From an uncultured delta proteobacterium (GTDB lineage: Bacteria > Desulfobacterota > Desulfobacteria > Desulfobacterales > SG8-13), in contig CAWKCK010000017.1 of NCBI GenBank assembly GCA_963848135.1, positions 1,218,538 through 1,282,537 of the forward strand: a stretch of DNA of 64,000 nucleotides. The letters are read 5' to 3'. Of the stretch, positions 1,223 to 20,243 are shown one piece after another. Position 1 is the stretch's first letter. Each line of letters opens with the position of its first letter. Position numbers and translations under genes: made by a program. The notes below the pieces were generated by a model. That model was not told the DNA's origin. It saw only the letters and a list, made by a program, of their open reading frames with translations, and searched no databases.

Positions 1223-1239
1223 AAGATCCCAATTCAGGG

Positions 1240-1351
1240 GAACTTGTGCCTGGTGCTATTTTCCGGCCCTATCAACCGGCGGATTTCCTGAATATATCCT
1301 GACGGTATCGTTATAATAGAGGAGAAATTAGATAGTTACGATTTTGGCAAG
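1240..1351 (+). repeat. Array junction repeat (AJR) copy 1, left/core/R segments, ending in TGGCAAG
   Basis: Aligns with 15287-15397: gaact..ctg.tgctat..cggcggatttcctgaatata.cc..cg.tatcgt..gatagtt..tggcaag. Confidence 0.8.
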
Positions 1352-1389
1352 CTGTACGACATAAAACCTATTATTTCTATTAATAATGG

Positions 1390-2325
1390 TTAGTTATAGC
1401 CCATTAAATGTATTGGTTTTTGCTCTTTGTCAAGAGTTTTTTCACCGTCACCGGTGTGGCGTTGAAGCACCTTGTTCATGGCGCTATAGTAATCACGTCG
1501 AACCTTCGGGTTGGAGACCCGACAATACCGCTGCGTGGTTTTTATGCGCGTGTGGCCGAGCAGATCCTGGATGGTAACCAGGTCGGCATCGGCGTTGAGC
1601 ATCTGCGTGGCCATCGTATGGCGAAGTTGATGGCAACAGACTCTCAGCCCTGCTTTGCTGGCATAGAGCTGCATGCGGTGCTGGATGCCGCGGGCCTTGA
1701 GCGGTTTGCCTCTAAAGCGGCCCTTTTCCACCAGGAAGAGCTTTTTGACCCGCGAGTGGGGTCTGGCTTTAAGGTAAGCAGCCAAGGCGGTGTATGCGTC
1801 CTTGCTCAGATAGACCACACGGTCTTTTAGCCCCTTGCCCTGGTAGACAAACACTTGATACCGCGGCAGGTCCAAGGCACTCAGAGTGAGATTGGTTACC
1901 TCTTCGACCCGGAGTCCGCAGCGCAGCATCAGCTTGAAGATGGCCCGGTCTCTGGGATTGTCGATGACCGCAAAGAGCGCAGAGATCTCTTCATCCCGCA
2001 GGTAGCGCGGCAGTGGCCTGGAGAGCCTTAAGGTATACCCGCGCTTGACCGGATTGCTCATTACAACCTCCTCTTCGTTGATCAGGTAATCATAAAAGCC
2101 GCGGATGCTGTCCAGGTAGCAATTGACGGTCTTGGGTTTCAAACGCTTGCTGCGCAGATAATCGATGAAGCCCAATAGTTTCTTGTGGGTGACAGCCTCC
2201 ACGGGCATATCCAGCCAGACGACAAACTGCTTCAGGGTGCTCATATAGGTTCGCAGCGTATGGGCGGAGTAATTGCGTCGCTTTAAGAACCTACGGTAGT
2301 TGATAATCGAGTTGGTAATGTCCAT
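1390..2325 (-). CDS. tyrosine recombinase (second gene of the pair)
   Basis: 311 aa with a SAM-like N-domain. Catalytic motifs are GLRVEE, HQLRHTMAT and LLGHTRIKTTQRY. Confidence 0.9.
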   Translation of the reverse strand: MDITNSIINYRRFLKRRNYSAHTLRTYMSTLKQFVVWLDMPVEAVTHKKLLGFIDYLRSKRLKPKTVNCYLDSIRGFYDYLINEEEVVMSNPVKRGYTLRLSRPLPRYLRDEEISALFAVIDNPRDRAIFKLMLRCGLRVEEVTNLTLSALDLPRYQVFVYQGKGLKDRVVYLSKDAYTALAAYLKARPHSRVKKLFLVEKGRFRGKPLKARGIQHRMQLYASKAGLRVCCHQLRHTMATQMLNADADLVTIQDLLGHTRIKTTQRYCRVSNPKVRRDYYSAMNKVLQRHTGDGEKTLDKEQKPIHLMGYN

Positions 2326-3379
2326 GGAGTTCTCCCTTTTCGACGATGGCCATGGCTTTGTAGTATTGTTCCCGGCGCGTGTTGTCGGTCAGCCGGGCAT
2401 AGCGGCGGGTCATTTCGATGCAGCTGTGCCCGAGAAGCTCCTGCAAACACTGCAGCGGCATACCGGCGTTGAGCAGCTCTGTGGCGAAGGTGTGCCGCAG
2501 GCAGTGCAGGGTGTATCCCTTGTGGGCCAGTCCGGATTTTTGCAGATAGGCGTTGAAGATTAGGCGGGCAGCCGCATAACCCAGGGCTCGCCCGCAGTTG
2601 CCGTAGAAGATGAACCCGCTTTGTCTTCTCCTGGTGTTCAGCCATTTTATTAGAGCGCTTCGGGCATCATCGCTCAAATAGACAACGCGTCCGACCCGGT
2701 TCTTTTGTGCTTCTATGATTTGTATAATATTTTCCCGCAGGTTGAGATCTTCCACTTTGGTGCCGAGCAGCTCGCCGATGCGCATCCCGGTTCGCAACAA
2801 TGTCAATACCAGGGCGCGATCACGCGGTTTTTTGACTACGGCCAACAGCTGCTTGATATGATCCGGATCAATGGCCCGCGGCAGGGCATCGGGAACTTTA
2901 ATGCGCAGTTTGCGCTTGAGCAGATCCGGGTGAAGCACATCGCGATCGATCAAAAAGTTGATAAAGGCATACAGGCAGCGCAACTGAGTGCTGACCGTAT
3001 TGGGTGAAAGCCCGCGGTCTTGCTCATGTTCAACGAATTCGGCGATGTGCTCGCGGGTGATGGCGTGCAGTTGATTGGTGCCACTGTCTTTGAGAAAAAG
3101 TAAAAAACCGGTAATGTTGCCACCGTTGGATCGGATCGTGTTGGGTCGGCAATTGCGTCGATGCTGATTGAGCAAATACGCCCTGACATGCTCTGCAGCC
3201 ATGAGATCCTGCACGGTGATTTTGCGTAGGATTCGGTCAATAAGAGGATTGAAAGTGAAGGGATTTCGATCGAAATTGGAACGGACCGAGGACGAACGAA
3301 TTGATTTGTCCTTGCCGGACCGATGCCTTTTGAGTTGATCGGTCTGGATTTCTGCGGAAACGTGTTCGAGGTTCATCAC
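2291..3379 (-). CDS. tyrosine recombinase (first gene of the pair)
   Basis: 362 aa with GMRIGEL, HCLRHTFAT and LLGHSCIEMTRRY. Its 3' end overlaps the next recombinase gene by 35 nt. Confidence 0.9.
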   Translation of the reverse strand: MMNLEHVSAEIQTDQLKRHRSGKDKSIRSSSVRSNFDRNPFTFNPLIDRILRKITVQDLMAAEHVRAYLLNQHRRNCRPNTIRSNGGNITGFLLFLKDSGTNQLHAITREHIAEFVEHEQDRGLSPNTVSTQLRCLYAFINFLIDRDVLHPDLLKRKLRIKVPDALPRAIDPDHIKQLLAVVKKPRDRALVLTLLRTGMRIGELLGTKVEDLNLRENIIQIIEAQKNRVGRVVYLSDDARSALIKWLNTRRRQSGFIFYGNCGRALGYAAARLIFNAYLQKSGLAHKGYTLHCLRHTFATELLNAGMPLQCLQELLGHSCIEMTRRYARLTDNTRREQYYKAMAIVEKGELHGHYQLDYQLP

Positions 3380-3464
3380 TGCCTCCTTTCGTTTTTAGCA
3401 GAAAAAACAGGCAGATAATGACCTCTGTAACACTTTCAGTCAATTACCTTTTTATGTCGTACAG

Positions 3465-3530
3465 TGGCAAGAAATGTTTAGTGGTGAACCACTTTGTAGT
3501 ATTGACGGGATTTTGTTTAACGTGAAATGA
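3465..3530 (+). repeat. AJR copy 1 resumed after the insertion (TGGCAAG + gtaTTGACg segment)
   Basis: tggcaag..tagtattgacggg matches the tggcaag..gagtattgacc segment of the other copies. Confidence 0.6.
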
Positions 3531-3991
3531 ACGTTGACGTAAGATCATAACTTAAGATGATAAAGAGATAAGGAAAATATGCCCGGTATTCTAACTTAAC
3601 AGGTTTTACAAAAACTGGGAGTAAAGTACTACTATGCGTATTAAGATATTCTTTGCCAGGGTGCTCGACGCTGTTTTTGGTTGTCTGCTAACGGTTGCAT
3701 GTTGCAACCTATTATCTGTAGTATTGGTATTCATAAACATCTTAAATATAGCGAATCCTCTATTGGCAGTCCAACATCCTTGACAAACTGCAACGAGTTA
3801 GTAGCTTAAATCCAAACTTGGGTTGTTAAATGGCCTTGTAATACTTCCAGCATCTCTTCTGTTTCCAGATATTCGCATCTAAAACTTCATAAGTAATCTT
3901 ATGAAGCCTTGTATGGAGTCAGATAATTCTTATCCGATCAATCTTAAATTAATCATCAATTCAGTACCAATAGACAATAAACAAAGAAAGG

Positions 3992-4486
3992 ATGAACCCA
4001 ATGAGCACAAATGATCTATTTGTATACGCAGCGGCATATGACGATGAAGGGGACGCACGTTCCGACCTGGAGACATTTCAGGAGTTAGCTTCGGTAGGCG
4101 TCGTCGGCAAATGTGATACTGCGGTATTGACCAAGGGTGAGGACGGAAAAGTCCACGTTGAGAAGCATGGCACTGCCTCTAAAAGCGTCGGTTGGAAGGG
4201 TGCTATCGCTGGAGGAATTGTGGGGCTTCTTTTTCCGCCGTCAATTTTAGTCGGCAGCCTTGCCGGTGGTGCCGCCGGTGCACTGGCCGGGAAGCTATGG
4301 GGCGGTATGTCCCGCTCCAATCTTAAAGAGATCGGTGAGGCTCTCGACGAACACGAGACCGGGCTGGTCATTGTGGGTGAATCCACCGTCGACGAGTTTG
4401 TCGAGAAAGCACTAAAAAAAGCTAAAAAACGCATTCGCAAAGAATTGAATACCAAACTTGACGACATCGAGAAGGAGTTAGAATAG
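3992..4486 (+). CDS. DUF1269-like small membrane protein (glycine-zipper TM)
   Basis: 164 aa. Central segment GAIAGGIVGLLFPPSILVGSLAGGAAGALAG, charged C-tail, purine-rich RBS. Confidence 0.75.
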   Translation: MNPMSTNDLFVYAAAYDDEGDARSDLETFQELASVGVVGKCDTAVLTKGEDGKVHVEKHGTASKSVGWKGAIAGGIVGLLFPPSILVGSLAGGAAGALAGKLWGGMSRSNLKEIGEALDEHETGLVIVGESTVDEFVEKALKKAKKRIRKELNTKLDDIEKELE

Positions 4487-4541
4487 CAGAGCTTTTTAAA
4501 TCTAATTTGGAATAGTTTTGATTTGAAATGGATGTAAATTT

Positions 4542-4570
4542 GGCAGGACCAGAAATGGCCCTGCCTTTTA
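4542..4570 (+). terminator. rho-independent terminator (GGCAGG..CCTGCC + T-run)
   Basis: Hairpin ggcaggacc-agaaat-ggccctgcc followed by tttta. Confidence 0.6.
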
Positions 4571-4604
4571 TTTGGAACAATTACATTTGTTGCTGTCAAA
4601 ACGC

Positions 4605-4717
4605 AAACTCAATGTACCTGCTATGACCTTTGAGCTATCACATGGTTGGTTTGCTTGAGATAGCCGAATCGTATATTCATTTTTAACGGTATTTTTGATA
4701 GTTACGGAAGTGGCAAT
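4605..4717 (+). repeat. AJR copy 2 (uninterrupted left-core-R)
   Basis: aaactcaatgtacctgctatgacctttgagctatc..ttgcttgagatagccgaatcgtatattcatttttaacggtatttttgatagttacggaagtggcaat. Confidence 0.85.
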
Positions 4718-5037
4718 ATTTTTTATAACCCCACCACAAATATTCACCGATAGGTCACACACCAAAACAGTACAATGTATTATAAATATCTAAAATAATA
4801 TATTTTTGTTGACATTATTTCTCCTCAACAATAATGAATTTAATATTCAGCTCCTTCCGCATCTGATGCTCCATACCGAATCTACATCCATTGTATAAAT
4901 TATCTAAATCCACTGAGCTGATTTTCGACAAGATTTATATAGCCGACCAAGTTTTTAATTACCGTTCAATTACTGGTAACACCTAAACAATACTACAATA
5001 GTTGACTATTAGATTTGCTTCCCAGAGGAGGAATCCT

Positions 5038-6354
5038 TTGAAACTAAAAAATAAATGGAATCTGTTCTGTTTGAGTGTTTTATTTCTTGTATTTGGATTA
5101 CTCATGGCTTCATGTGGTGGTGGTGGGACTGGTAACAATAGTCCGCCAAGCCCTGCTACACTGTCTGAGGCAAAAATAACGGTCACCTCAGATGATCAAG
5201 TCGCGACTGTAATGTTTGTTGATGGCTCAGATACTTGGGATGCTGAATATGTAAGTTCTTGCCTGGAAGATTGTATTTCAGACACTGACGATCCTTTAGG
5301 GCCATGGTACGGTCAGTCAGTTAACTTTAAAGGTATCGAATCTGGAGGTAAAGAATTAATCTATCGCTACAAACTTGAATTTGACCAGGATGTTGAAGTT
5401 TCTTCAATTGAAATATCAGGAACTGGGTGGGGTAAGTTTCGGTTATTAGATGAAAGCATGAATGATCTAATAAATATTGATCTTCCTGGTGGCAATAATT
5501 TTCATACTTATACTATTCATACCCATGGATCGGATAGTAAAATTTACTATATGGAAGAAATTGATAGTGTGAATACTGTTTCTCGATACCGTTCAAATAT
5601 TGAGGCCCATTTCTCACAAACGTGCGCTTCAAAGGCCAATATTATCCTTGATGGCAGCATTTATAGCAGTATCTCAGGGACTGGATGGTTTGTAGAAGAG
5701 GCTTCGATTGGTGCTTATTCGAATTACGACCCATCTGGTGGCACTTATATATGGGTTGAATATGAAACCTATTTAACCGAGGGGGAATGGAACATAGGGC
5801 TATGTGCCATTAATTGGGGCGATCTCGGCCCTGATCCCGAATGGTATCCTTATTTCGAGCTTTCAGTTATCGTTAAACGCGAAAATGATACCGTGGCAGA
5901 CAGTATCATTACAGTACCAGCAAGTGACACCAGTTTGAATTCGGGATATTATACCGTTAAAGTACCTGAAAATGGGCTATATAAGGTAAGATTCGCGTGG
6001 CTAAATGATAAATATGAAGAAACCAGACCTGATGGATCAATGGCTTTAGATGCCAATATAAAAATAGCAAGGGTATTCTTTGACAGCGATGATGACGATG
6101 ACGGTGTTCCAAACATCAACGATGTTTGCCCAGAAACTGCATTCGGAGCAAACGTGGATATAGATGGATGCAGTGGAGCGCAAATCGTGGACCGAGAGTG
6201 TCCATGCGATGATAGTTGGAAAAATCATGGTGAGTATGTAAGTTGTGTCGCTCATGTCGCAGAAGAGCAGCTGGAATCCAACTTTATCACCCCCGTAGAG
6301 AAAGAGGCTATCGTATCCACACATGCTAAAAGCGTCTGTGGGAAAAAGGGATAA
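5038..6354 (+). CDS. secreted lipoprotein with an Asp-rich thrombospondin-type-3-like Ca-binding repeat
   Basis: TTG start 6 nt after GAGGAGG. Signal peptide with lipobox LLMASC. C-terminal DSDDDDDGVPNINDVCP..DIDGCS. Confidence 0.75.
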   Translation: MKLKNKWNLFCLSVLFLVFGLLMASCGGGGTGNNSPPSPATLSEAKITVTSDDQVATVMFVDGSDTWDAEYVSSCLEDCISDTDDPLGPWYGQSVNFKGIESGGKELIYRYKLEFDQDVEVSSIEISGTGWGKFRLLDESMNDLINIDLPGGNNFHTYTIHTHGSDSKIYYMEEIDSVNTVSRYRSNIEAHFSQTCASKANIILDGSIYSSISGTGWFVEEASIGAYSNYDPSGGTYIWVEYETYLTEGEWNIGLCAINWGDLGPDPEWYPYFELSVIVKRENDTVADSIITVPASDTSLNSGYYTVKVPENGLYKVRFAWLNDKYEETRPDGSMALDANIKIARVFFDSDDDDDGVPNINDVCPETAFGANVDIDGCSGAQIVDRECPCDDSWKNHGEYVSCVAHVAEEQLESNFITPVEKEAIVSTHAKSVCGKKG

Positions 6355-6434
6355 ATATTGATTGAGCGTTAGGGTGAAATTTACCTCCGCCAAACTGCTC
6401 CTGATAGCGGCTTGAAAGAGCCTTAATATCATGA

Positions 6435-6468
6435 AGGCCAACCCAGCCAACTGATGGTTGGCCTTTTC
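6435..6468 (+). terminator. rho-independent terminator
   Basis: 9-bp stem aggccaacc/ggttggcct followed by tttt. Confidence 0.65.
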
Positions 6469-6530
6469 CAGTTTAAATTTGGATTTGATTTTAATATCTC
6501 AGGGAATATGCAAAAGCACCTTTCTGGCAT

Positions 6531-6672
6531 ATCTCCAACGTATCTTAAATATATTTGCCCTTCGATTATTTCCACATTGTAAACAAATCGTAAGGCGAGA
6601 CCGACTCACACTTACTGCTATGACCTTTAAGCTATCATCTGGCCGATTTGCTTGAGATAGCCAACCGGTATC
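6531..6672 (+). repeat. AJR copy 3, left half (ends ..cttgagatagccaaccGGTATC)
   Basis: ctccaacgtatc..cttactgctatgacctttaagctatcatctggccgatttgcttgagatagcc. Confidence 0.85.
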
Positions 6673-6718
6673 TAACGAATAGAGGGGTGAAGCCAACCAA
6701 GGGATTCACCCCTTTCGT

Positions 6719-7556
6719 TTAGCAATATAGGTTTTCAATCCACCTCATCGCCTCTGTATCACTGATTGTTCCAAGATACCGCTGAGTGGTTGCAAGATTT
6801 GCGTGACGGAGAATGACCTTGCTCACGATTTCGATTGGCGCTCCGGATCGAGAGGCATAAGTAGCCGAATGCCGCCGCAGTTCATGGGGTCTCAAATGGA
6901 TACCGACCATCTTTCCCGCTTTTTTTACAACCAGCCTGGCCGCTGCATAAGTAATCGGGAAAATGCGATCATCTGGCCTGTTATAAGTCTTAATGGCATA
7001 GTCACGAAGCCTGGCAGCCACTTTCTGCGGGATGAACACAATCTCATGCTCTTTACCGCTTTTCGGTTCTCGCAGGATCAGCTTTCGATCCTGGATGTCA
7101 TTCACTCTGAGTTTTAACACTTCACCGATTCGCATCCCGCCACGGGCCATCAGTTCAAGCATCAAACGATTACGAATTTTGGTGGTTCGGAAAATGATTT
7201 CATCAACGGTCTCTTTTTCGATGATTTCCCATCTGGATACCACCCTTTCCCGATACAGTTTTCGGATCATAGGCGTATCGCAAGGATTGCCTATACCAGA
7301 GTCGATGTTATTGCGGAAAAAATTGAAAAAGGCGGACAGGTAGGAATAACGGACTCGCTTTGTGTAGGGCTTGTTACCATTGGTAAAGCTGTTCAGAAAG
7401 GAAAGGACATCATCCGGTGTAACCTGTTCAATCTCAGCATCACCGAACTCCCGGCAGAATCGGTCAATAACTGACCAATAGGACCGAACGGTATTTTTTT
7501 TTCGAGTGGGCCTTGTGGTAATCGATCCATATTTTTGCGGCTTCGGCCACTTTCAT
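6719..7556 (-). CDS. AJR-embedded tyrosine recombinase, copy 1; full length needs a one-base correction in an A9 tract
   Basis: ATG at 7556 with RBS gaggagg. The frame breaks in A9 (7494-7502). With 8 A's the reading is MKVAEAAKIWIDYHKAHSKKNTVRSYWSVIDRFCREFGDAEI..MARGGMRIGEV..HELRRHSATYA..ILRHANLATTQRY, about 279 aa. Confidence 0.8.
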
Positions 7557-7613
7557 GGTTTACCTCCTCTGGTTATTGATGTTTGACAATCGGGGAAATC
7601 CCGAGGTAAACCA

Positions 7614-7643
7614 ATGATACTCAGAAAGTATATTCAGTTTCAA
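7614..7643 (-). promoter_or_regulatory. candidate recombinase promoter spanning the module/AJR junction (TTGAAA-N18-TATCAT)
   Basis: The -35 lies in the AJR right half (7638-7643) and the -10 in the module (7614-7619). The same geometry occurs at 19275-19304. Confidence 0.45.
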
Positions 7644-7674
7644 CGCTATTTTCGATAGTTACGAGACTGGCAAG
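7628..7674 (+). repeat. AJR copy 3, right half
   Basis: gtatattcagtttcaacgctattttcgatagttacgagactggcaag matches 4671-4717. Confidence 0.85.
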
Positions 7675-7755
7675 ATACTCATAGCTACGAATGCAGCGTA
7701 TAGAGGCAGAATAGCCCGATTAAGCTCCATTCCTTTTATCAATTTACCAAAATTC

Positions 7756-7784
7756 TTGACAATTCTTAACTCACCACATTAATG
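7756..7784 (+). promoter_or_regulatory. candidate sigma70 promoter (TTGACA-N17/18-TTAATGG)
   Basis: Sequence motif about 100 nt upstream of the DsrE-like gene. Confidence 0.4.
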
Positions 7785-7882
7785 GTTTTTAAACCAATCA
7801 CTGAGACAGATAGAGGTATAAAAATCATTATGACAAATGCGTAGTTTTCCATGCGCAAAAGAAAAAATTAAAGGGACTAAAA

Positions 7883-8233
7883 ATGGCGAAGATAACAATT
7901 TACCTGAAAAGAGGAGACGTAGATGCTGCCACGCGCGCGTTTCAAATGGCCAAGTTGGCGCATTCCCAGGGGCATCAAACTAGCCTGTTCATGTCCGATG
8001 ATGGCGTGTATTGGGCGGACAAAAACCGGAGTTTGGACGAAAAGACCGGAACCAACGACACGGCAAGCGAATTTTTTCCCTATCTGGTGGAAAACGAGGT
8101 GCCGATCTACGTCTGACCTCCCTGCGCTGAAGCTCGCCAGGTTGGCGAGGAAAACTTCTATTCCAACATGACCCTGGCCGGGGCCCCGAAATTGATCGAA
8201 CTGGCAGCAGAAGGGAGTGTAATAAGTTTCTAA
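7883..8233 (+). CDS. DsrE/DsrF-like selenoprotein (in-frame UGA at 8114-8116)
   Basis: The frame stays open through TGA: ..VPIYV-U-PPCAEARQVGEENFYSNMTLAGAPKLIELAAEGSVISF*. The post-UGA part completes the DsrE fold, with U at the conserved Cys position. Confidence 0.75.
8133..8149 (+). promoter_or_regulatory. SECIS-like hairpin (CTCGCCA-GGT-TGGCGAG)
   Basis: Perfect 7-bp stem with a GGU apical loop, starting 16 nt after the UGA. Confidence 0.6.
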
Positions 8234-8435
8234 AGGCCAAAGGCAGACTTTCTGAGCTTGCCCGGGGTATTTGTATTGGCCGATCCATTTTCTCATAAGG
8301 ACTTATGGTGTAAAAGATCAGGGCAGAGATTTGATTTTCTTTACCTTCACCTAAGAGTCTTGAGCGTCATCACTACACATTGTGGTTCCAGTCAAATCAA
8401 CAAATTTAAATTTATACATACTTGAATTCAGGGGG

Positions 8436-8699
8436 CGGGGAGTTTTTTACGCCAACGCTGAACAGGAGCGGAGAGAATCATCAGCAGCGAAAGCGCGCAC
8501 TGTCTGAATGCATTAGGCGGCCTTAGGAATAAACAACGGAAACTCTCTGACGGTCCAATGTAAATCCAAACGATGACTTTTAATTATCTATTTCATATTA
8601 TTATGAAATCTGTTTTTTCCTTAGGCCGCTTTCGGCATGAGTTTGCGCGATGAAGTCGCTGATCATTCCCTCCGCTCCCGTTTAATCAAAAACTCCCCG
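8436..8699. repeat. MITE-like element with ~100-bp imperfect terminal inverted repeats
   Basis: cggggagttttt..ggagcggagagaatcatcagc..ggcggccttagg versus the reverse complement of ccttaggccgc..gctgatcattccctccgctcc..aaaaactccccg. Confidence 0.6.
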
Positions 8700-8793
8700 A
8701 GGGCTCATTTATATTCTTATGGGCCTATTCGAAGTTCATGTGGTTTAATCGACTGGAAAAACCAGCTACGGCATCTCTAAGGAGTCACCATAC

Positions 8794-9720
8794 ATGAGAC
8801 GAAAGAAGCTTTTGATTGCTTTGTTGGTAATTGAAATATTGATGTCGACGCTTATTGAGCCAATATGGGCCCAAAATAAAGGAAGCGGGCGAAAAGCGGG
8901 TTATAGTTTTTCTTTTTCCTATACGCCTGTCTATCAATTTGAAACCGACCTTGACAGTGGCGGTAGTTTCGATGTCAGTCGCCACTACTTGAACTTTGAC
9001 GTCATCCGTCCCTTTGGTCAAAACCTGCGGCTAGGTTTGGGTTTAAATTACGAATTCGAAAAGTGGAATTTCAATAATATGACCAATGTGGTCGGGGCAA
9101 CCCCATGGGGTTCGATTCATCGGCCTGGTATCAGCCTGCCGATTTTCTACACTTTCTCGGATAACTGGATTTTAGGATTCTCGCCGTCAGTAGAATATTC
9201 CGGTGAGTCTGGGGCCAAGTTCAGTGAGAGCTTGAATTATGGTGGTATTCTATCTTTGTCTCATCCTTTCAGCCGAAATCTTTACATAGGGCTTGGCTTC
9301 GGTCTTTTTAGTCGGTTGGAAAAAACAACCATTTTTCCATTTATTGTGATCGATTGGAAAATCAGCGAGCAATTTCGAATCACGAATCCGTTCAGAGCAG
9401 GACCGGCTGGACCGGCCGGACTAGAATTTGTTTATTCTCCGGCAGAGAATTGGGAGCTGGCAATAGGCGGAGCGTATCGATTCTACCGCTTTAGGCTGGA
9501 CGATAAAAGCGCTGTTCCAAATGGTATCGGTGATAATAAGTTTGTGGTGGCATTCCTTCGGGCACAGCGGAAACTGGGTGCAAATTTTTCCATTGATCTG
9601 GCAGGAGGAGCGCTTTTTGCGGGGAAATTGTCCATAGAAAACTCGACCGGTGACAAACTGGGATCAGACAATTACGATCCGTCTCCCTTTTTAGCGCTCA
9701 CGTTGGCTGGAAAATTTTAA
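8794..9720 (+). CDS. outer-membrane beta-barrel-like protein
   Basis: 308 aa. RBS aaggag, signal peptide, alternating aromatic/Gly beta-strand pattern, C-terminal ..LTLAGKF. Confidence 0.75.
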   Translation: MRRKKLLIALLVIEILMSTLIEPIWAQNKGSGRKAGYSFSFSYTPVYQFETDLDSGGSFDVSRHYLNFDVIRPFGQNLRLGLGLNYEFEKWNFNNMTNVVGATPWGSIHRPGISLPIFYTFSDNWILGFSPSVEYSGESGAKFSESLNYGGILSLSHPFSRNLYIGLGFGLFSRLEKTTIFPFIVIDWKISEQFRITNPFRAGPAGPAGLEFVYSPAENWELAIGGAYRFYRFRLDDKSAVPNGIGDNKFVVAFLRAQRKLGANFSIDLAGGALFAGKLSIENSTGDKLGSDNYDPSPFLALTLAGKF

Positions 9721-9901
9721 ACTGCTGGATACGGCAAACCCTTGATAATTTCAGAGCCTTTTGGGATGAAACCGATTTTCCAGCCCCAGAAAGACTTGGC
9801 GAGCGCGGACCGGTTTTCAAGTATCCTGAGTGGTTGATCATGTTCATTGCCATATTATCGGTGAAGTTATCTGCTTCCCTGTATGGAGGAGGTATAGAAC
9901 C

Positions 9902-10021
9902 ATGAAAATCTTTGTTCTTTGCGTAGGGTTAGGTTTTGGAATTTTTGCCATAGCAGTTTACGCCTATGGTCTTAAGCACCGAATAAAAGAGTTAAAGCAA
10001 AAGCCAGATGAAAATAACTAA
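9902..10021 (+). CDS. small single-TM protein (39 aa)
   Basis: ATG after ggaggagg. Sequence MKIFVLCVGLGFGIFAIAVYAYGL + charged tail. Confidence 0.5.
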   Translation: MKIFVLCVGLGFGIFAIAVYAYGLKHRIKELKQKPDENN

Positions 10022-10260
10022 TTGGTCTGGTAAAGTCATTTAAGATTTTAGTGGCGAACAAGTGCATGCAGGGCATTGCATTCCGCTGCACTTCATGCCC
10101 CCCTGATGCTCGCGTTAGGCACGAAATATTGGGTTGGCGGAACCTACCGCTGAACTTTGAATTACTCCAGCAAAACATAAGGCCTGATCGAAGCACGCCT
10201 TCTGCTAAGCGATGGTCCTTCGTCGCTTCAAAACCTTACGATACTAAAACAATACCCGCG

Positions 10261-10381
10261 CTCAATACCACATCGTAGCAATTGACAATAGTAGCCCTTC
10301 CTGTATTGATTATTTTAGTCAGAATAGCCAAAACGTATCGGCATAATTTATAAAATTTAGCGGCGTTACTCTATTGGCAAA
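10261..10381 (+). repeat. AJR copy 4 (diverged)
   Basis: ctcaatacca..tcagaatagccaaaacgtatcgg..gcggcgttactctattggcaa. Confidence 0.6.
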
Positions 10382-10498
10382 AAACCTATTGCATGAGCCT
10401 ACCTGATATATTATTGATAGAATCATTGAATCACAGCTGAATATGTATGATAATAATTTTGTTCAGCGAGGCAGAAAACCAACCCCAAAAAGAAAGGA

Positions 10499-10807
10499 TT
10501 GATCATGCAAGTAGAAGACTACTGTAAAGCAATGAAAGCTGAAGTTACGGCATGGAAAGAGAAACTTGAGGCGATGAAGAAGACGGCGGACGGATTTGGG
10601 ACCGAGCAAAAGGAAAAAGTTCTCCCACTGATCGGGCAGCTCGAGCAGGAGGTCGTGACCGCGCAAATGAGGGTGGATCAGCTCGAGAACGAGTGCCCTT
10701 CCGACTGGTCACCGATAAAGAACGAACTTGACGAGCTTTTCGGAACGGTTGGTAGCAAGATCAGCCATCAGTTCCAGGAAATGTCTTCGCGAGAAACGTT
10801 GTGGTAG
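10499..10807 (+). CDS. hypothetical coiled-coil protein
   Basis: 102-aa ORF with RBS aaaggattgatc. No family recognised. Confidence 0.55.
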   Translation: MIMQVEDYCKAMKAEVTAWKEKLEAMKKTADGFGTEQKEKVLPLIGQLEQEVVTAQMRVDQLENECPSDWSPIKNELDELFGTVGSKISHQFQEMSSRETLW

Positions 10808-10859
10808 AAGCTATCCGGGGGAAAAGTGTCTCGCTTTTCCCCCGGTGGCCGAAGGCTTG

Positions 10860-11024
10860 GTAATTTTACAAGTGAACTCGATTCGCGAGCAGAAGCATGA
10901 AACAAAGTGCCCGCCTGATTGGCCGCCGATTAAAACGAATTCGTTGATCATTTTGGTACTATCTTCAGCAGTGTCGACCAAACTTGTCGCGATATGTCTC
11001 CTGGGATTTCACCCTCCCCCATGA
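10860..11024 (+). pseudogene. frameshifted partial paralogue of the 10499 gene's C-terminal half
   Basis: CPPDWPPIK(N)EFVDHFGTIFSSVDQTCRDMS compares with CPSDWSPIKNELDELFGTVGSKISHQFQEMS. One A is missing in attaaaacgaa. Confidence 0.55.
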
Positions 11025-11127
11025 ATAATTTTTTTTCAGATTGTTGTCCTCTATCATAGGGTTTCCTGAACAAATCATGTCCTTGCGGCGACCACAGTTT
11101 TCCCTGAAGATATATGAAGTAAAAAGC

Positions 11128-12632
11128 TGGTTATATAACGTTGCAAAACTGATTTTTGCTTTTGAAAAACAGGCACAAAGAAATGGCAGATAGCCATTTC
11201 TCCACTTTCATCACCAGGAAGCACAGTGCAATGGCCGTCTCACTGGTAGATGCCAACTTTGTCATCAACCGGCCGATACCAAAGCGCCGTTTACCCTGGC
11301 CGAACTTGCCCTCTATCGGTATCCGATCCAGTTCATCCTGCCGTGCCTGAACGGCTTCGGCTTTAAGTCGGGCGGCATTCTCTGCGGTCACCTTCGGTGG
11401 TCTTCCCAATCTCGGGCCCGACAACCGGATGTGGTGTTTCTTGCAATAGCGAAGATTGTCTCGCGTGCGGTAGATCCGATCTGCATGCACCGACTTCGGA
11501 TAAAGCCCGAAACGCCTCTTGTAGGATTCTACCTGGCCTTTCAGGTCTAAACTTTCGTTGAAGTTGTCCCAACTGCATCGATCCACAAAATCGTAGCCTT
11601 CTACCAGGCTGACGGATAATTTGGGGCCGAATTCGGTATCGCTTCCGGCCTTGCCCCTTTTTATCGGCAACACATGCGGTAGGCTGATGCTCACGATTCG
11701 ATCGCTGATCCGACGGATGCGGTTCTCATACATCCAGCGTTGCTGACGGTAGAGCTCGCTGACCACCAATAGATCTCTATATTGTTTTCGGTTGAGAACC
11801 CTTAGCCCTGTTGACTCAGATAGCTTGTCGATGCTTGCCAGGTTGCGATGCAGATAGCCCAACTGACCCCGGAGTGCTTTACGAAGCTTTCGGCCGCCAA
11901 CTCTCCTGCTTTTGGCCACAGCAAGGTAGGCTTTTCTGGCCTTTACTCGATAGGTTCGAGGCTTCTTAAAACCTCGGCCACGGCCTTTATGCAGCACGTC
12001 TATGATCTGCTCGCTCTTCTGCCGGGCGGTGTTCAAAAGCTTAAAATCGGTCGGATAGGTGATGTCAGCCGGAACGCAAGTCGCATCGAGCACCTACTTA
12101 CCCTTGATGGATGGGCCTTGTGGCTGATCATCATCTTTTTTGATGCTCTCAGAGGCCCTGGTGACAATGACCTCATTGACATGCTTGAGAACATCGACGG
12201 AAAAGCGTTTTCGAAAATGCACCAACATGGTGGGATGAAAGGGTGACTCGGTAGTAAATTGCTGCAACCCACAAAAATACTGCAGATAGGGGTTCTCTCG
12301 GATCTGCTCCACGCACTCCTCGTCGGTCAGCCCCAGGCGCTCTTTAGTAATCAGTGCCGCCAAGGCCATGCGCACTGAAAGGGCCGGTGGTCCTTGACCG
12401 TTGCCGGTAAAATTCCGGCAGTATTTCTCTTCGAACTCGTGCCAGGGAATCACCTCTGCCAATCTGACCCAGCGATTGTCCGCTGGTAATTTACCACCGA
12501 ATGGCAGGTGAAACTCGACAAATTTCAGCTGTTTTTCATTGTGTCTGTACATAATCTCCGGCGCATTGGTGCAAGGAATTTTGGTGATATCGCTTGTTTT
12601 TCGTGCACTTTTTGCAACCGAATAAGCATAAT
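11128..12632 (-). mobile_element. IS5/IS1182-family insertion sequence (approximate ends)
   Basis: Imperfect IRs around ..ataacgttgcaaaact (about 11135-11150) and ctttttgcaaccgaat (about 12608-12625). Confidence 0.6.
11131..12552 (-). pseudogene. IS5/IS1182-family DDE transposase interrupted by one in-frame TAG
   Basis: ORFs 12094-12552 and 11131-12093 are contiguous in the same frame: ..PSIKGK*VLDATCVPADITYPTD... InsH-type N-domain plus DDE domain. Confidence 0.8.
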
Positions 12633-13072
12633 TTAGATATAATTACAAGTATTTATACGTCATTCAGTTGGCTCTATAATATTCCCCTACAACCGGCACT
12701 TCCACCACCTTCCATGGTTACGAATGGGTCTCCCATCCCGGCGGCAATAACATGCACCGGGCTGTCATCTTTCGGGACAGCGCAGACCGGACTCGTCAAG
12801 TAGTCCAGTTTTCCCAGTATGACTCGGTCGATCCGTAGGTGGCAATTACGTTAATATAGAAAAGGCCGAATTAATGATTGTCTATAGGGTTCTGAGCTAA
12901 AGGTAAGCCTCTCTGATAGTTTTAGACCCTCATTTTGATACCAATCATTAATTATTGAAAACACCTTAATGAGCAATTAGCTTCAAGATAATTTCAACAA
13001 GTAATGCCGTTCCAACTCTATTTTTATTTAGTTCCATATTTTACCAATTTGATAATTGATAAAGGAGAAGTG

Positions 13073-14368
13073 ATGAAAAACAAAATGTTATTATTTACAG
13101 CTTTTTGCCTTGTATTTGTTTCTGTTTTGACCGGGTGTAGCGACGATAATGGTAATCCAATCATTCCGCCAAATGAGGCGTCGATTAGAATCTTACATGC
13201 GTCACCGGATGCACCAAATGTGGACGTACTGGTTGACGGACAAGCAGTTTTAACAGATGTCCCTTATAAAGCAGCCTCACAATTTTTATCGATACTTTCG
13301 GGAAACCGAAATATTAAGGTCAATGTGGCAGGCACCTCGACTTCAGTAATCGATGCAAACGTTAATTTTGCCACGGATTCACTTACTACGATCATCGCAA
13401 CAAATTTTGTCGCTCAAATCGAAGCGCTTGTTTTGGACGATGAAGGCACTCCACCCAGCGGTAATCTACTGAAGATCCGGGTTGTACATAGCTCTCCGAG
13501 TGCACCTGCGGTTGATGTGTATGTGACTGCTCCAGGTGCAGACATCAATGCGGAAAATCCCACTTTACCCAACGTGCCTTTTAAGGCAAATTCCGATTTT
13601 CTTGAAATCCCCGAGGGAGATTATCAGATTCGGATAACAGCTACTGGCTTAAAAGTTCCCGTTTATGACTCAGGTGCTGTCGCGTTGGACGCCGGTTCAA
13701 TACTGACTGCGGTGGCGGTCGATGCAACCGGCGGAGCTTCACCGGTATCCCTTATTGTACTGACCAATGACCCGACAACACCATCAATTGAAATTGCTGA
13801 TAGTCGTGCACGCCTCCGAGCTGTTCACGCTTCTCCCGACGCACCCAATGTCGACATTCTTGTCGATGATGTGATTGTTATCAACGATGTGGCATTCAAG
13901 GAGTTTTTAGACTACACGGAAGTACCTTCCGGTGACCGAAACATTAAAGTTAACGCAACTGGAACAGCAATCAGTGTCATCAATGTCACGACCCCATTAG
14001 CTGCTGGAACAGATTATACAGTTCTTGCCGTTAATTTCTTGGCGAGCATTGAGCCTCTGCTACTGACAGATGATAACACCAGCCCCACGCCAGGAAATGC
14101 TAGAGTCCGCGTGGTTCATGCTTCACCGGATGCGCCGAACGTGGATATTTTGGTCGACGACGTAGTTGTGTTGACTAATGTTGCCTTCAAACAATTTTCG
14201 GATTATTTGGAGGTACCGGCCGGAGCCAGAAACATCAAAGTAAATGCTACAGGGACAGCAACTACGGTAATCGATGAAACGCCAACTTTGGCTGATGGGA
14301 GCGTTTACACAGTTATTGCCTTAAATGATCTGGCGAACATCGAACCACTGTTACTGTTGGATAGATAA
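13073..14368 (+). CDS. DUF4397-repeat lipoprotein (four ~105-aa repeats)
   Basis: ATG after aaaggagaag. Lipobox LTGC. Repeated (L/V)HASPDAPNVD(V/I)LVD..NIKVNA(T/V)GT blocks. Confidence 0.85.
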   Translation: MKNKMLLFTAFCLVFVSVLTGCSDDNGNPIIPPNEASIRILHASPDAPNVDVLVDGQAVLTDVPYKAASQFLSILSGNRNIKVNVAGTSTSVIDANVNFATDSLTTIIATNFVAQIEALVLDDEGTPPSGNLLKIRVVHSSPSAPAVDVYVTAPGADINAENPTLPNVPFKANSDFLEIPEGDYQIRITATGLKVPVYDSGAVALDAGSILTAVAVDATGGASPVSLIVLTNDPTTPSIEIADSRARLRAVHASPDAPNVDILVDDVIVINDVAFKEFLDYTEVPSGDRNIKVNATGTAISVINVTTPLAAGTDYTVLAVNFLASIEPLLLTDDNTSPTPGNARVRVVHASPDAPNVDILVDDVVVLTNVAFKQFSDYLEVPAGARNIKVNATGTATTVIDETPTLADGSVYTVIALNDLANIEPLLLLDR

Positions 14369-14406
14369 AATCTAAAAACAGTAATGAAGTAAATGGTGGA
14401 AAAAGA

Positions 14407-14435
14407 GGCAGGGTCTCCATTGGCCCTGCCTTATT
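14407..14435 (+). terminator. terminator hairpin GGCAGGG..CCCTGCC
   Basis: 7-bp stem with a weak T-tract. Confidence 0.5.
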
Positions 14436-14461
14436 CGAAATCCTCACTATTAATGATGCCG

Positions 14462-14637
14462 AAACTCAGACTCAAATTCCTGCTACATAGAGAACCTGTA
14501 GGTATTTCTCAAATGCTCATCATAGCCACATCATACCTTCACCGATGATATAATTGTTGACAGTTGGTGGCAAGCAGGTTTGATTATTGACCCATCCTAC
14601 GATTTTAAATTACTCTCAATGTATCTGTAGCCGACAG
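14462..14637 (+). repeat. AJR copy 5 (complete, with promoter segment)
   Basis: aaactcagactcaaattcctgcta..catagcc..tggtggcaag..tattgaccc-N18-tactctcaatgtatctg. Confidence 0.8.
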
Positions 14638-14714
14638 GCATTTTACCCAAAGAGGAATCTTCACCAATCAGGTTTTCCAAGGTACATTAGAAATTTAAGA
14701 GTAAGGAGCCAATC

Positions 14715-15173
14715 ATGGCCAAAGTTGAGCTAAATACCCATGCTCCTGAGTTTACCTTACCCGATTTTAATGGAAGCAACGTTTCACCTTCAGATTTTGC
14801 CGGACAGAAAAATGTGCTGGTAGTTTTTAATCGTGGATTTGTCTGACCATTCTGCCGCAAGCATATGGCGCAGTTGCGTCAAGATTATCAGCGCTTTTTT
14901 AAACTGGATACAGAAATAGTCGTAATTGGACCTGAGGATGCCGAATCTTTTCAGAAGTACTGGAAAAAGGAAGACCTGCCATTTATCGGATTACCTGATC
15001 CGAAACATAAAATTTTAAAATTATACGGGCAGGAGGTCAATTTGTTCAAGTTGGGCAGAATGCCAGCCCAGATGCTGATTGATAAGTCTGGAATGCTTCG
15101 GTATGTGCATTACGGACATTCGATGGCGGATATTCCCTTGAATGAAGACATTATGAATCTGATCAAAATATAG
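14715..15173 (+). CDS. AhpC/TSA peroxiredoxin-like selenoprotein (in-frame UGA at 14844-14846)
   Basis: ATG after gtaaggag. ..VLVVFNRGFV-U-PFCRKHMAQL.. places U in the CxxC/Cp position. The downstream frame is the track ORF 14865-15173. Confidence 0.75.
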
Positions 15174-15261
15174 AAACCTGTCATAGAAATTCATCATAAC
15201 CAACAGCATTAGAGGCGACGGCAAAATGCCGCCACGACTTATGCTAAGCGTTACTGATAGC

Positions 15262-15448
15262 TCCAACGTATCAAACGAATGTGAGAACTCAAATCTGCTG
15301 CTATGGTCCAACATCTATCACTCGGCGGATTTCCTGAATATAGCCAGACGATATCGTGATATTTGGCGTAATTACGGATAGTTTGACCTGTGGCAAGCAA
15401 GTTTGAGTATTGACCGGCCCACAGATTCAACCTATGCTCAATCTACAC
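15262..15448 (+). repeat. AJR copy 6 (complete, with promoter segment)
   Basis: ctccaacgtatcaaacgaat..aactcaaatctgctgctatgg..cggcggatttcctgaatatagccagacgatatcgt..gatagtttgacctgtggcaag..TTGACC-N17-TATGCTcaat. Confidence 0.85.
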
Positions 15449-15543
15449 ACAATTGGAAAAGTTGCAAAAAAACCCGATAAATATCATTTTATCAGGGAAA
15501 ATTGACCTGATTATAAACGGTTAGCCATCTAGAGGAAAGATAT

Positions 15544-15920
15544 ATGGAAAAAAGTGACCGATATAAAAGAGGGTGGGAAAAATTAAAAGAGGTAAATGGA
15601 GAAGCTGGGGAAAGCGTTTTAGAAAGCCTTAAAGATATTGCACCAGAGTTTGCCGATTTACTAATCGAATTTCCATTTGGCGATATTTACTCACGTCCAG
15701 GATTTGATTTAAAATCAAGAGAAATCGCAGTGGTAGCCGGTTTAACTACATTGGGCAACGCCACGCCTCAATTAAAAGTTCATATTCATGGTGCACTAAA
15801 CGTGGATGTACTAGACAAGAGGTTGTAAAAGTAATTATGCAAATGGCTGTTTATGCCGGGTTCCCCGCAGCCCTTAATTGCTTATTTGCCGCAAAAGAGG
15901 TCTTTAAAGAAAGAGAATAA
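15544..15920 (+). pseudogene. carboxymuconolactone decarboxylase (AhpD-like) family gene with a 1-nt frameshift near 15800
   Basis: ..HIHGALN then a shift to (R)GCTRQEVVKVIMQMAVYAGFPAALNCLFAAKEVFKERE*. aacgtggatgt lacks one G relative to a continuous frame. Confidence 0.7.
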
Positions 15921-16125
15921 AACTATAGAAAACTATTCGTTTCAGCGGACCCGCAATCTCGCGGGTCAGGTTGACCGTGTGGTTTACACACAGGCCAAGG
16001 GTGACTTCATTGGGAAAGTTACTGAGAGGGCAATTCGTTACTACAGAAAGGCCCAACCATTAAAATCAGAGGACACAAAACACCCCGCCGCTGATTAAAC
16101 CGTTCGTCCCAAGAATGAAGAAATT

Positions 16126-17385: not shown

Positions 17386-17732
17386 CCCGCTGCGGTGCTC
17401 ACAAGGCTCTGTGGATAATCTGAAATACAACAATGGACGAACAAAGCAGCCCACACCGTCCGCTAATCGCGGCGGGTGACTGCGGGCGTTAGGCGAACTT
17501 TTGATTTCTGCTATTTAACCTAACTCCCACTTGTTGAGAAATGCTTTCGATTGCCAAACCATATAACAAGCCGTCCACACGCATCCTGAATTGAATTTTG
17601 AATATATCACAGGTTTTTTAAAAGAAGTATTTTTAAGATACTTTGGTGGTAGCTGGAATCTCTCAAAGGTTATGACCTATCCAAACTATCGAATCAAGAA
17701 CTTACGACAAAATTTATTCAACTCATAACACC

Positions 17733-18014
17733 TTAAAAAATACGATATAATAAAAACAAAGCTATACATGCAAGAAATATTAAACCACCATCCGTACCAT
17801 GACTGTACCAACTAAACAGATCTTCTTTATCACCTTCACGTGCTTTACTATCGGGAGCTTTAAACATGAAAAACAATCCAAAGAACCAAGTTAAAGCACA
17901 AATTGCTGCACCTCTGGAGAAAAAATCGCCTTTTCTATAAGCAACGATACCTCCAAGAAATATTACAGGAAAATATAATACCAGAAATAATAGCGCCTTT
18001 GTTGTAGTATCCAT
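17733..18014 (-). CDS. small integral membrane protein
   Basis: 93 aa, 3 TM helices, RBS gaggag upstream. Confidence 0.6.
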   Translation of the reverse strand: MDTTTKALLFLVLYFPVIFLGGIVAYRKGDFFSRGAAICALTWFFGLFFMFKAPDSKAREGDKEDLFSWYSHGTDGGLIFLACIALFLLYRIF

Positions 18015-18256
18015 TTCTAATCTCCTCTGCTTTTTTTTATTTTGGCTCGAGATTGTTCTTTAGGTCAGAATGAATAAATAGGAGAGGAGTTTTCTATTTT
18101 TAGATCAGGTTTAACCCAGTTTTCTACACAACTTTAGCGTCGTATTTATTTTATACTGCAATTAGTTCAATGGGGTCAAATCTTTTTTACGAAGTGATAA
18201 TATGTGGGATTTCTTGTTCCAAAACCTATCTGAAATCCCAATGTCCTATGCTGTCA

Positions 18257-18333
18257 GAACTCAGACTCAATGTATCTGTTATGATCCTTGAACTATCATC
18301 TGATCAAATTGCTTGAGATAGACAATCCGCATC
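18257..18333 (+). repeat. AJR copy 7, left half
   Basis: gaactcagactcaatgtatctgttatgatccttgaactatcatctgatcaaattgcttgagatagacaatccgcatc. Confidence 0.85.
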
Positions 18334-18381
18334 AATGGCATAAAGGGGTGACACCCAAAAAGGGGTTCACCCCTTTTTGCA

Positions 18382-20206: not shown

Positions 20207-20243
20207 ATACGCAACCGAGTGCGACTTTTGAAAGGAAGCGAAG

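Follow-up and report, generated by a model that had tools for sequence, protein, structure and literature searches.

To our knowledge, among systems that stockpile and reshuffle single-gene cassettes, only integrons are well understood; their definition rests on the integrase IntI together with folded attC sites. Their cassettes carry one site repeat each in a single orientation, a tyrosine recombinase gene runs against the cassettes next to a promoter region that faces outward, one integrase heads the array next to attI, and cassettes are re-assorted between arrays. In case of Xer/dif systems (archaeal XerA, xerS-difSL, xerH-difH), a single-recombinase Xer gene can adjoin its own site, as observed for xerS and difSL, and the core of the site is made of two inverted arms and a short spacer. 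Integrative mobile elements exploiting Xer recombination (IMEX) and pdif modules are discrete gene modules that occur in tandem sets with Xer-type sites between them. IS1111-attC elements and group IIC-attC introns occupy a fixed insertion point in the recombination site of an array. Here we describe a cassette array with likenesses to all of these, located in a stretch of 64,000 nt (hereafter the window) of contig CAWKCK010000017.1 (assembly GCA_963848135.1, positions 1,218,538 to 1,282,537, forward strand) of an uncultured delta proteobacterium of the Desulfobacterales (SG8-13). Each cassette is followed by a junction repeat (JR), and a module that encodes a tyrosine recombinase is nested at one fixed point of this repeat. 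We rate the chance as about even that this is a self-mobile, tightly throttled recombinase serving an integron-like platform of independent origin. An earlier note on this DNA, made by a model from the sequence alone, had drawn attention to the module; a description of such a module and JR array system was not found in the searchable literature.

The JRs, approximately 130 bp in length, were detected in the window by repeat finding, word search, and two hidden Markov models (HMMs) built from the window, which were used instead of a strict regular expression that missed most copies. About 16 JRs were identified, all of them on the + strand, in an array of at least 30 kb into which the left end of the window cuts. 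Attempts to follow the array further to the left by look-ups of the exact sequences of two window proteins, P0001 and the MFS protein, gave no match. Over the first 30.3 kb the G+C content (2-kb steps) is 0.39-0.50, compared to mostly 0.50-0.59 past approximately 34 kb, and the genes of this part are situated chiefly on the + strand, each followed by one JR. The cassette genes are varied and include MFS, DUF1269, DUF6268, DUF4397, WD40, Yip1, STAS, and ankyrin members.

An alignment of 13 JRs gave a conserved order of blocks: ACTCAA..CTGCTATG, N10, and CTATCA; then GATTTGCTTGAGATAG, a 7-bp spacer, and (G/C)TATC; and, after approximately 25 nt, GATAGTTAC, 5 nt, and TGGCAAG. The distance between the core and TGGCAAG is constant in all 13. 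The core consists of the 5-bp inverted arms GATAG and (G/C)TATC and the 7-bp spacer, for which the consensus over all core sites is approximately CCRRATC, and it separates a left half (L-half) from a right half (R-half); other GATAG/CTATC-type words occur at fixed distances in both halves. With at most one mismatch, the core motif ATAGCCNNAYSNTAT was found 15 times in the window (14 times on the + strand, all below 30.3 kb), compared to 0.67 occurrences expected by chance and to none of 100 shuffles with 15. Single-strand folding of four JRs on both strands did not exceed that of shuffled sequences (z from -1.12 to +0.78), and GTTRRRY is absent at the JR ends. The JR core may thus be an ordinary double-stranded crossover site, as judged from its form, unlike the hairpin-forming attC of integrons. 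As a classical dif site it was rejected: the architecture is shared, but the sequence is not, the ATAG/CTAT arms and 7-bp spacer of the core standing against ATAA-N6-TTAT (PMC2731167).

Three JRs are broken at one identical point by the module, which lies on the minus strand, antiparallel to the cassettes, and comprises a hairpin, the recombinase gene, and its 5' leader (Table 1). One occurrence is potentially functional (copy 1), one is a pseudogene (copy 2), and one is a stub. The sequence bears out the earlier note with respect to these three occurrences, to an uninterrupted repeat that reads straight through the insertion point (JR02), and to the recombinase as a cassette-like, discrete unit with a constant location within the repeat. 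A simple split, as had been supposed, does not describe the arrangement, since every occupied JR carries a duplicated 17-bp core, and the unit measures 960 bp from core to core instead of approximately 955 bp. The core has the form GATAG-N7-GTATA when empty, GATAG-N7-GTATC to the left of the module, and GATAC-N7-GTATA to its right (in case of the stub, the right core only). These forms fit the attB/attL/attR logic of a circle of approximately 960 bp inserted into an empty core, and the joined module ends would give the palindrome GATAC-N7-GTATC. GTAT(C/A) is indeed present at both junctions of copy 1, but merely as the right arm of the inverted-repeat core.

Between copies 1 and 2, identity amounts to 77% for the L-half, 67% each for the left core and the hairpin region, 86% for the coding sequence, 90% for the leader, 88% for the right core, and 90.5% for the R-half. 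The R-half through TGGCAAG is therefore conserved along with the module (90%). Since the 100 nt outside the JRs are unrelated (13% identity on the left and 16% on the right), the two copies are not segmental duplicates; the earlier note had named such a duplication as a finding that would refute its proposal.

Table 1. Coordinates of the cassette array, of the uninterrupted repeat, and of the three module occurrences in the window.
Feature	Position	Strand	Basis or remark
Cassette array	1234..30305	+	JR HMMs, JR alignment
JR ends (approximate)	1351, 4717, 7674, 14574, 15397, 19336, 20681, 22253, 22316, 23944, 24848, 25777, 26987, 29308, 30302	+	
JR02, uninterrupted, same subfamily as the occupied JRs	4581..4719	+	sequence, JR HMM
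JR02 empty core GATAG-CCGAATC-GTATA	4659-4675	+	sequence
JR03 L-half: ACTCA..CTGCTATG..CTATCA..GATTTGCTTGA	6578..6655	+	JR HMM match 6578-6684, 13-JR alignment
Copy 1 left core, attL-like: GATAG-CCAACCG-GTATC	6656..6672	+	sequence, core motif statistics
Hairpin GGGGTGAA..TTCACCCC directly past the recombinase stop	6684..6712		sequence, homologous loci
Recombinase gene copy 1	6719..7556	-	278 aa once one A of the run is skipped
9-A run of copy 1, codons 19-21 (T-run on +)	7494..7502	-	candidate recoding/slippage site
5' leader: Shine-Dalgarno (SD) sequence GGAGG, small hairpin (7590-7604), 10-nt GGTTTACCTC complementary to the SD region	7557..7615	-	
Copy 1 right core, attR-like: GATAC-TCAGAAA-GTATA	7616..7632	+	sequence
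JR03 R-half, contains GATAGTTAC, ends in TGGCAAG (7668-7674)	7633..7674	+	alignment
JR06 L-half and left core GATAG-ACAATCC-GCATC (18317-18333), copy 2	18232..18333	+	sequence, JR HMM
Recombinase gene copy 2, pseudogene	18382..19218	-	sequence
9-A run of copy 2 (T-run on +)	19156-19164	-	sequence
JR06 right core GATAC-TCAGATC-GTATA (19278-19294) and R-half to TGGCAAG	19278..19336	+	
Stub: approximately 10 codons and leader (approximately 22104-22194), right core, R-half, TGGCAAG (22247-22253)	22104..22253	+	
Stub right core GATAC-CCAAATC-GTATA	22195-22211	+	sequence

The frame-corrected protein of copy 1 comprises 278 aa, one fewer than the approximately 279 aa given before, and contains the full catalytic set (R142, K165/168, H224, R227, H251, and Y260), which aligns with the sequence of the XerA structure. 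The Pfam model Phage_integrase (PF00589) was matched with 78.3 bits (cut-off 27.1), as were SAM-like N-terminal domains. Classification against IntI, Xer, and phage integrase models, suggested as a check by the earlier note, placed the NCBIfam model XerA_Arch first with 126.5 bits, below its cut-off of 220. Lower scores were obtained for XerD (62.3, cut-off 329.6), XerC (55.5, cut-off 335), and XerS (27.6, cut-off 267). The IntI models TIGR02249 and PRK15417 reached 60.9 bits (cut-off 265) and 38.9 bits (cut-off 435), respectively, and covered residues 15-187 only. Among the matches to solved structures, the XerA proteins from Pyrococcus abyssi (4a8e) and Thermoplasma (5hxy) rank first, and no IntI chain was present. 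The spacing between the catalytic K and H amounts to approximately 56-59 residues, compared to approximately 106 in IntI1, and leaves no space for the IntI-specific insertion. By sequence, model, and structure matches, the recombinase is an XerA/Xer-like tyrosine recombinase and not IntI, in accordance with the earlier note. It shares the simple two-domain architecture of the Xer/dif proteins, its closest protein relatives, and has no arm-binding domain; unlike them, its gene is neither single-copy nor housekeeping, scores below the family cut-offs, and lies within an array of accessory genes. An assignment to the IntDes subgroup (Smyshlyaev et al.) was rejected, because that subgroup has an arm-binding domain and is confined to Desulfovibrio.

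Neither of the two full copies is an open gene. A run of nine A after codon 18 breaks the frame, and the 0 frame ends after 30 codons; as written, the longest open reading frames (ORFs) encode 183 aa in copy 1 and 138 and 118 aa in copy 2. In the main frame of copy 1, the next possible start leaves just 183 codons. Copy 2 is a pseudogene because, besides the 9-A run, it has an additional 1-nt deletion near 18797-18800, immediately before the catalytic Arg. The frameshift is a conserved feature of the family, which the earlier note had not recognised. In copy 1 and in 44 of the 80 best related loci from other genomes (L001-L080, see below), the 0 frame ends after 22-54 codons, and removal of one A yields exactly 278 codons. 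The out-of-frame run occurs as A9, C-A8, GG-A7, GGGG-A6, or A6-G-AA, and was observed in isolate chromosomes as well as in many-sample MEGAHIT/SPAdes short-read assemblies. In loci L028, L031, and L053, the frame is restored by one additional A instead. In-frame alleles with a long run exist (L084 and L097, TCA AAA AAA AAY), and in-frame genes without the run are rare (L022, L024, L027, L030, and L035).

For the 45 copies that are out of frame and otherwise intact, variability at the three codon positions amounts to 0.78/0.63/1.34 upstream of the run and to 0.96/0.65/1.50 downstream of it, each part in its own frame. The excess at the third position argues that both parts are under coding constraint. 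Sequencing error is excluded for the run because it recurs in isolates and short-read assemblies, and error as well as simple decay because each part shows coding-type conservation. The conserved A-run together with the coding constraint points to programmed recoding, in which one A dropped or two A added would restore the full-length enzyme. RNA-polymerase slippage, a +1 ribosomal shift on lysine codons, or heritable changes of run length are conceivable routes. In a reporter system, frameshifting grows with the length of the run, from 10% at 7 A over 40% at 9 A to 63% at 11 A (PMC3711429), and mixed directions of the shift have been argued to indicate transcriptional realignment (PMC3711429). 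The recombinase resembles the described cases of slippage (transposases of insertion sequences (IS), Thermus dnaX) in the conserved run at the frame junction, the coding conservation of both ORF parts, the low level at which a mobile-element enzyme is held, and a direction of the shift that is not fully uniform (PMC3711429). It differs from them in its short 0-frame product of approximately 30 aa, which has no evident role. Integrases and recombinases are not mentioned in the slippage study (PMC3711429), and no report of recoding in any tyrosine recombinase was located in the searchable literature. As far as we found, programmed slippage conserved throughout a family of tyrosine recombinases would have no precedent; the A-run would act as a natural on/off throttle.

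Further candidate control elements flank the gene. The promoter that the earlier note had assembled across the junction, TTGAAA-18-TATCAT, is present in all three copies with 10 of 12 consensus positions. In copy 1, its -10 element (7614-7619, minus strand) partly coincides with the right core's inner arm, and its -35 element (7638-7643, minus strand) lies within the R-half; the -35 element is not kept in the Desulfosarcina-type relatives. In the leader, GGTTTACCTC is complementary to GAGGTAAACC, which spans the SD region. Among 31 leaders, 82% of the cells of this helix are paired, compared to 33-61% in slid controls, and 15 cells show double changes, compared to 6.4 in shuffles. This hand-proposed helix, with its modest support from covariation, suggests translational masking. 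The hairpin past the stop codon (8-bp stem, 13-nt loop) had been described as a terminator hairpin. The hairpin itself is nearly universal, being strong in 70 of 72 loci (median z -4.17, 97% below -2), but a terminator scan did not call it, probably owing to the limit of 3-8 nt that the scan sets on loop length. In the sequences that were read, an A-rich tract precedes it in the sense of the gene, and its T-rich tail is on the + strand, that is, in the sense of the array. Due to this orientation the hairpin appears set to terminate transcription of the upstream cassette, and it probably ends read-through from there rather than the recombinase transcript.

Relatives of the recombinase are encoded by 149 of the candidate stretches from a one-genome-per-species collection, of which the best 80 are L001-L080. 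In a protein search, at least 120 clusters (90% identity level) were 63-95% identical to the query. At 50% identity, 191 representatives were obtained with E <= 1e-30, mostly fragments, and the full-length proteins measure 275-283 aa. L001-L080 belong chiefly to metagenome-assembled genomes (MAGs) of the Desulfobacterales and to a few MAGs labelled Chloroflexota, Acidobacteriota, and Nitrospirota, and they include isolate chromosomes of Desulfosarcina widdelii, D. variabilis, and D. alkanivorans. On several contigs, two copies of the recombinase gene are located 8-65 kb apart. Close relatives were found neither in viral contigs of IMG/VR nor in plasmids of PLSDB, which weighs against an origin as phage integrase or from plasmids.

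The association with the half-sites is retained in these relatives. For 27 of the 41 evaluable loci, CTTGCCA (the reverse of TGGCAAG) is situated at -140 to -70 of the ATG, mostly at -118/-119, against a background of 0.13 per 70 nt, and CATAGCAG, the reverse of the start of the L-half, occurs 70-120 nt past the stop in 21 of 71 loci (background 0.04 per 100 nt). Homologues flanked by the same half-sites, a search for which the earlier note had proposed, are thus found, and at fixed distances. The JR HMMs gave 26 matches in L001-L080, none of them on the strand of the recombinase gene, in line with the earlier statement that it reads against the repeats and most cassettes. The left junction is at the identical position of the core in copies 1 and 2 and in L001, L004, L018, L020, L025, L026, and L069. 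JRs free of a recombinase are located 1-3 kb away in L011, L025, L031, L069, and L077; a BLAST search for further repeats in each locus's own flanks gave few matches. In metagenomes, the R-half word was matched 12 times, and nine of these matches are real JRs, of which five are occupied, three empty, and one disrupted; empty and occupied JRs were seen at different loci only. The metagenome locus L094 is collinear with copy 2, including 120 nt of the tail of the upstream cassette, and diverges past TGGCAAG. The tblastn match of L094 to residues 15-278 is one segment, and this locus appears to be free of the extra deletion of copy 2.

Two further loci differ in detail. In L081, a group II intron with a reverse transcriptase gene (10805-12700) has inserted into a recombinase copy at its extreme 3' end. 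In L090, at approximately 700-800, unrelated sequence and not the module precedes the R-half.

Cassettes are shared between arrays. The Yip1 cassette of the window (24874-25729) is 85% identical to a cassette of L026 that directly follows the R-half of the recombinase, and the homology starts just after TGGCAAG, covers the gene and the L-half, and ends at the next core. A GYD-like cassette occurs in three arrays (window, L015, and L062) at different positions. In the window, its gene (24240-24540) is decayed, with two in-frame stops; the homologues of L015 and L062 are intact and are situated on opposite sides of the recombinase. At the sequence level, re-assortment of cassettes between arrays is thereby shown. 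Breakpoints of shared cassettes were located at the core and at TGGCAAG, and in case of L088 versus L090 also past the promoter block described below; these varied breakpoints indicate that the JRs are mosaic.

For a self-mobile recombinase serving the array, the following course of events can be envisaged. A module would arrive as a circle with the palindromic site GATAC-N7-GTATC and would undergo conservative recombination with an empty core. GTAT had been proposed as the crossover region; it is one arm of GATAG-N7-(G/C)TATC, and crossover would be more likely within the 7-bp spacer. The enzyme would bind the GATA(G/C) arms. It would move the module by recombining the palindrome of the latter with any JR core, and by synapsis of pairs of JR cores it would excise and re-insert cassettes; it probably acts on any two JR cores, because the module arms are nearly the same words as the JR arms. 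It would be the functional counterpart of IntI, derived from another clade, acting on unfolded duplex sites, carried as a cassette, and present in several copies per array. Its synthesis would be rare, on account of the A-run and perhaps also of autorepression, given that the -10 element overlaps the core arm, and of SD sequestration.

A number of observations weigh against this course of events. Within copy 1, the left and right cores have different spacers (CCAACCG and TCAGAAA), which provide no clean shared overlap. Circular (attP-type) or tandem junctions were present in none of the sequences collected, and the three contigs of approximately 1 kb that carry the gene show no terminal overlap and hence no evidence of a circle. 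In the Desulfosarcina-type loci, CTTGCCAG directly follows the hairpin, so that the left junction differs from that of the window, but is conserved. Breakpoints beyond the core are unexplained by crossover at the core only and could result from homologous recombination between repeats. Another recombinase pair is inserted in the same array exactly at TGGCAAG. Copy 1 alone could work in the window, and only after recoding. With respect to regulation, promoter-like matches, which are consensus matches only, occur at chance density per region, and RNAalifold found no consensus structure in the leaders.

The main rival, which we consider less likely, is a selfish mini integrative element, i.e., a parasite of approximately 1 kb that uses the conserved JR core as a safe place to land, comparable to IS1111-attC elements and group IIC introns at integron attC sites, the cassettes being moved by another agent such as host Xer, another recombinase, or homologous recombination between repeats. 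The copies do decay, since the window contains one pseudogene and one stub, stubs or fragments of the module also occur in L010 and L019, and the 50%-identity representatives are mostly fragments. Furthermore, a second, unrelated recombinase element targets the repeat too, cassette breakpoints are not limited to the core, and throttling is typical of transposases (PMC3711429). On the other hand, the arms of the module consist of the same words as those of every JR, on which its enzyme should act, the orientation to the JRs is invariant, and across phyla the gene is accompanied by conserved half-sites. Other recombinases were not noted beside the arrays in the gene tables and the flanks that were read, no systematic search of flanks having been made. 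The data do not separate a self-serving platform from a parasite, but the half-sites of the relatives and the exchange of cassettes lean to the platform.

An apparent nesting, which we regard as improbable, would mean that the recombinase unit is an ordinary cassette in reverse orientation between TGGCAAG words, with the leader substituting for an L-half and a preceding cassette whose repeat, in the type seen in the window, merely lost its R-half. In the Desulfosarcina-type loci the unit is indeed flanked by direct CTTGCCAG words. This, together with the conservation of the R-half at the level of the gene, renders the right limit of the mobile unit ambiguous. The divergence of L094 from copy 2 after TGGCAAG and the start of the homology of the Yip1 cassette right after the same word are likewise in agreement with cassettes delimited by TGGCAAG. 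Against it, copies 1 and 2 and unrelated genomes all have the left junction at exactly the same position of the core, and JR02 consists of an L-half, one core, and a canonical R-half, as predicted for excision from core to core.

Three other explanations have next to no chance. A chromosome-dimer-resolution Xer with its dif site would agree with XerA as the closest characterised relative and with the occurrence of site-adjacent single-recombinase genes such as xerS/difSL, but the gene is multi-copy, frameshifted, and decaying in an island of low G+C, misses the XerA cut-off, and is associated with arms and a spacer unlike those of classical dif. Segmental duplication, assembly artefact, or sequencing error, suggested by homopolymer runs being error-prone on some platforms and by the extra single-base deletion of copy 2, which could be an error, is refuted for the duplication by the unrelated flanks and for the A-run by its presence in isolates and many short-read assemblies and by the coding-type conservation of each part in its frame. 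An atypical integron, composed of a divergent IntI and divergent attC sites, has in its favour one repeat per cassette, a single orientation, and an antiparallel recombinase, but is refuted on the defining features tested, namely the low IntI score restricted to the N-terminal half, the K-to-H spacing without room for the IntI insertion, JRs that are unfolded as single strands and lack GTTRRRY, and several recombinase copies within the array.

The array thus shares with integrons the organisation and the re-assortment of its cassettes, but its recombinase is XerA/Xer-like, resembles a cassette inside the repeat, and is present as three copies or remnants instead of heading the array by attI; moreover, a sigma-70-like promoter stands at the start of many cassettes, and the recombinase gene needs recoding. 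With Xer/dif systems it has in common that the gene adjoins its presumed site; with IMEX elements and pdif modules, the discrete modules in tandem sets. The latter use the host XerC/D and genuine dif-like sites, which alternate in orientation in case of pdif, whereas the JRs are all direct, non-dif, and associated with a recombinase of their own. The fixed insertion point is shared with IS1111-attC elements and group IIC-attC introns, but these depend on DEDD transposases or retrohoming, whereas the module encodes a tyrosine recombinase and its terminal words match the site. The system would act in an integron-like manner, yet it fails every IntI and attC test. There is a reasonable chance that this tyrosine-recombinase cassette platform is a system in its own right.

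It is tempting to speculate, at a chance somewhat short of even, that a second, independently evolved gene-capture platform is spread across the Desulfobacterales, characterised by a duplex JR, a nested XerA-like mobile cassette, and an A-run gate. If true, the cassette strategy evolved more than once, in another recombinase clade and with ordinary duplex sites, and a large unexplored pool of accessory genes would be opened in sediment anaerobes. Such a platform would evade tools of the IntegronFinder type, since IntegronFinder looks for IntI and attC (PMC4889954). The frame-corrected enzyme, which is compact and has a 17-bp core site, could also serve as a recombination tool.

The second recombinase element of the array (1345-3471) contains two overlapping Xer-like genes on the minus strand (1390-2325 and 2291-3379). 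It is a unit of 2113 bp with perfect 15-bp inverted repeats, CTGTACGACATAAAA (1352-1366) and TTTTATGTCGTACAG (3450-3464), and on either side it is bordered by TGGCAAG (1345-1351 and 3465-3471), the conserved word that closes JR01. If the ends of the unit were joined, a lox-like 15-7-15 palindrome would result in which TGGCAAG is the overlap. The encoded proteins are approximately 24-26% identical to the 278-aa family, and no close relatives of them were found in the other loci.

Many cassettes open right after TGGCAAG with a conserved, outward-directed sigma-70-like block, ..GTTTGAGTATTGACC-N17-TAT(G/T/A)CTCAAT, which was observed in the window at 15398-15445, 24849-24878, and 25783-25828 as well as in L088, L090, and L092. 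Examples are TTGACC-17-TATGCT (15410-15438) and TTGACC-16-TATAAT (24851-24878), the latter with 11 of 12 matches and the top promoter score within 12.6-31 kb. The block terminates in CTCAATGTATC, with which the L-half of the following JR also begins. L088 and L090 diverge exactly at the end of the block, a possible third breakpoint.

A short JR (22264-22316) consists of an L-half, a core, and, nearly at once, TGGCAAT; it is located approximately 10 nt from the TGGCAAG of the stub and resembles an empty cassette position. A comparable short repeat is found to the left of the recombinase in the Desulfosarcina-type loci. Extra core-like words, ATAGCCAAAACGTAT and ATTGCCAAACCATAT, occur in the regions 10324-10380 and 17550-17564, the former with a weak JR HMM match (10323-10380), and are possibly decayed repeats within long "cassettes". 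Two IS elements are situated in the array on the minus strand, at 11131-12552 and 27248-28543. One has DDE_Tnp_1_2 and DUF772 parts in two ORFs and is possibly frameshifted, and in the other an ISL3-family transposase is spread across overlapping ORFs.

The end of the array is followed, after a gap of approximately 580 bp, by a tRNA-Lys(UUU) gene (30884-30957). An origin of the JR from this gene was rejected by comparison. A segment of approximately 130 bp (30996-31129) recurs 13 kb downstream at 43941-44075 with 84-93% identity, and this pair may mark island boundaries. Xer-type sites cluster at termini; the cumulative GC skew of the window peaks at approximately 36-38 kb and then declines, a signal that is weak, is confounded by the island, and does not suffice to call a replication terminus. 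The window furthermore contains a group II intron (Rfam D1-D4 and domain V/VI, 35417-36106) and a cobalamin riboswitch (45343-45546).

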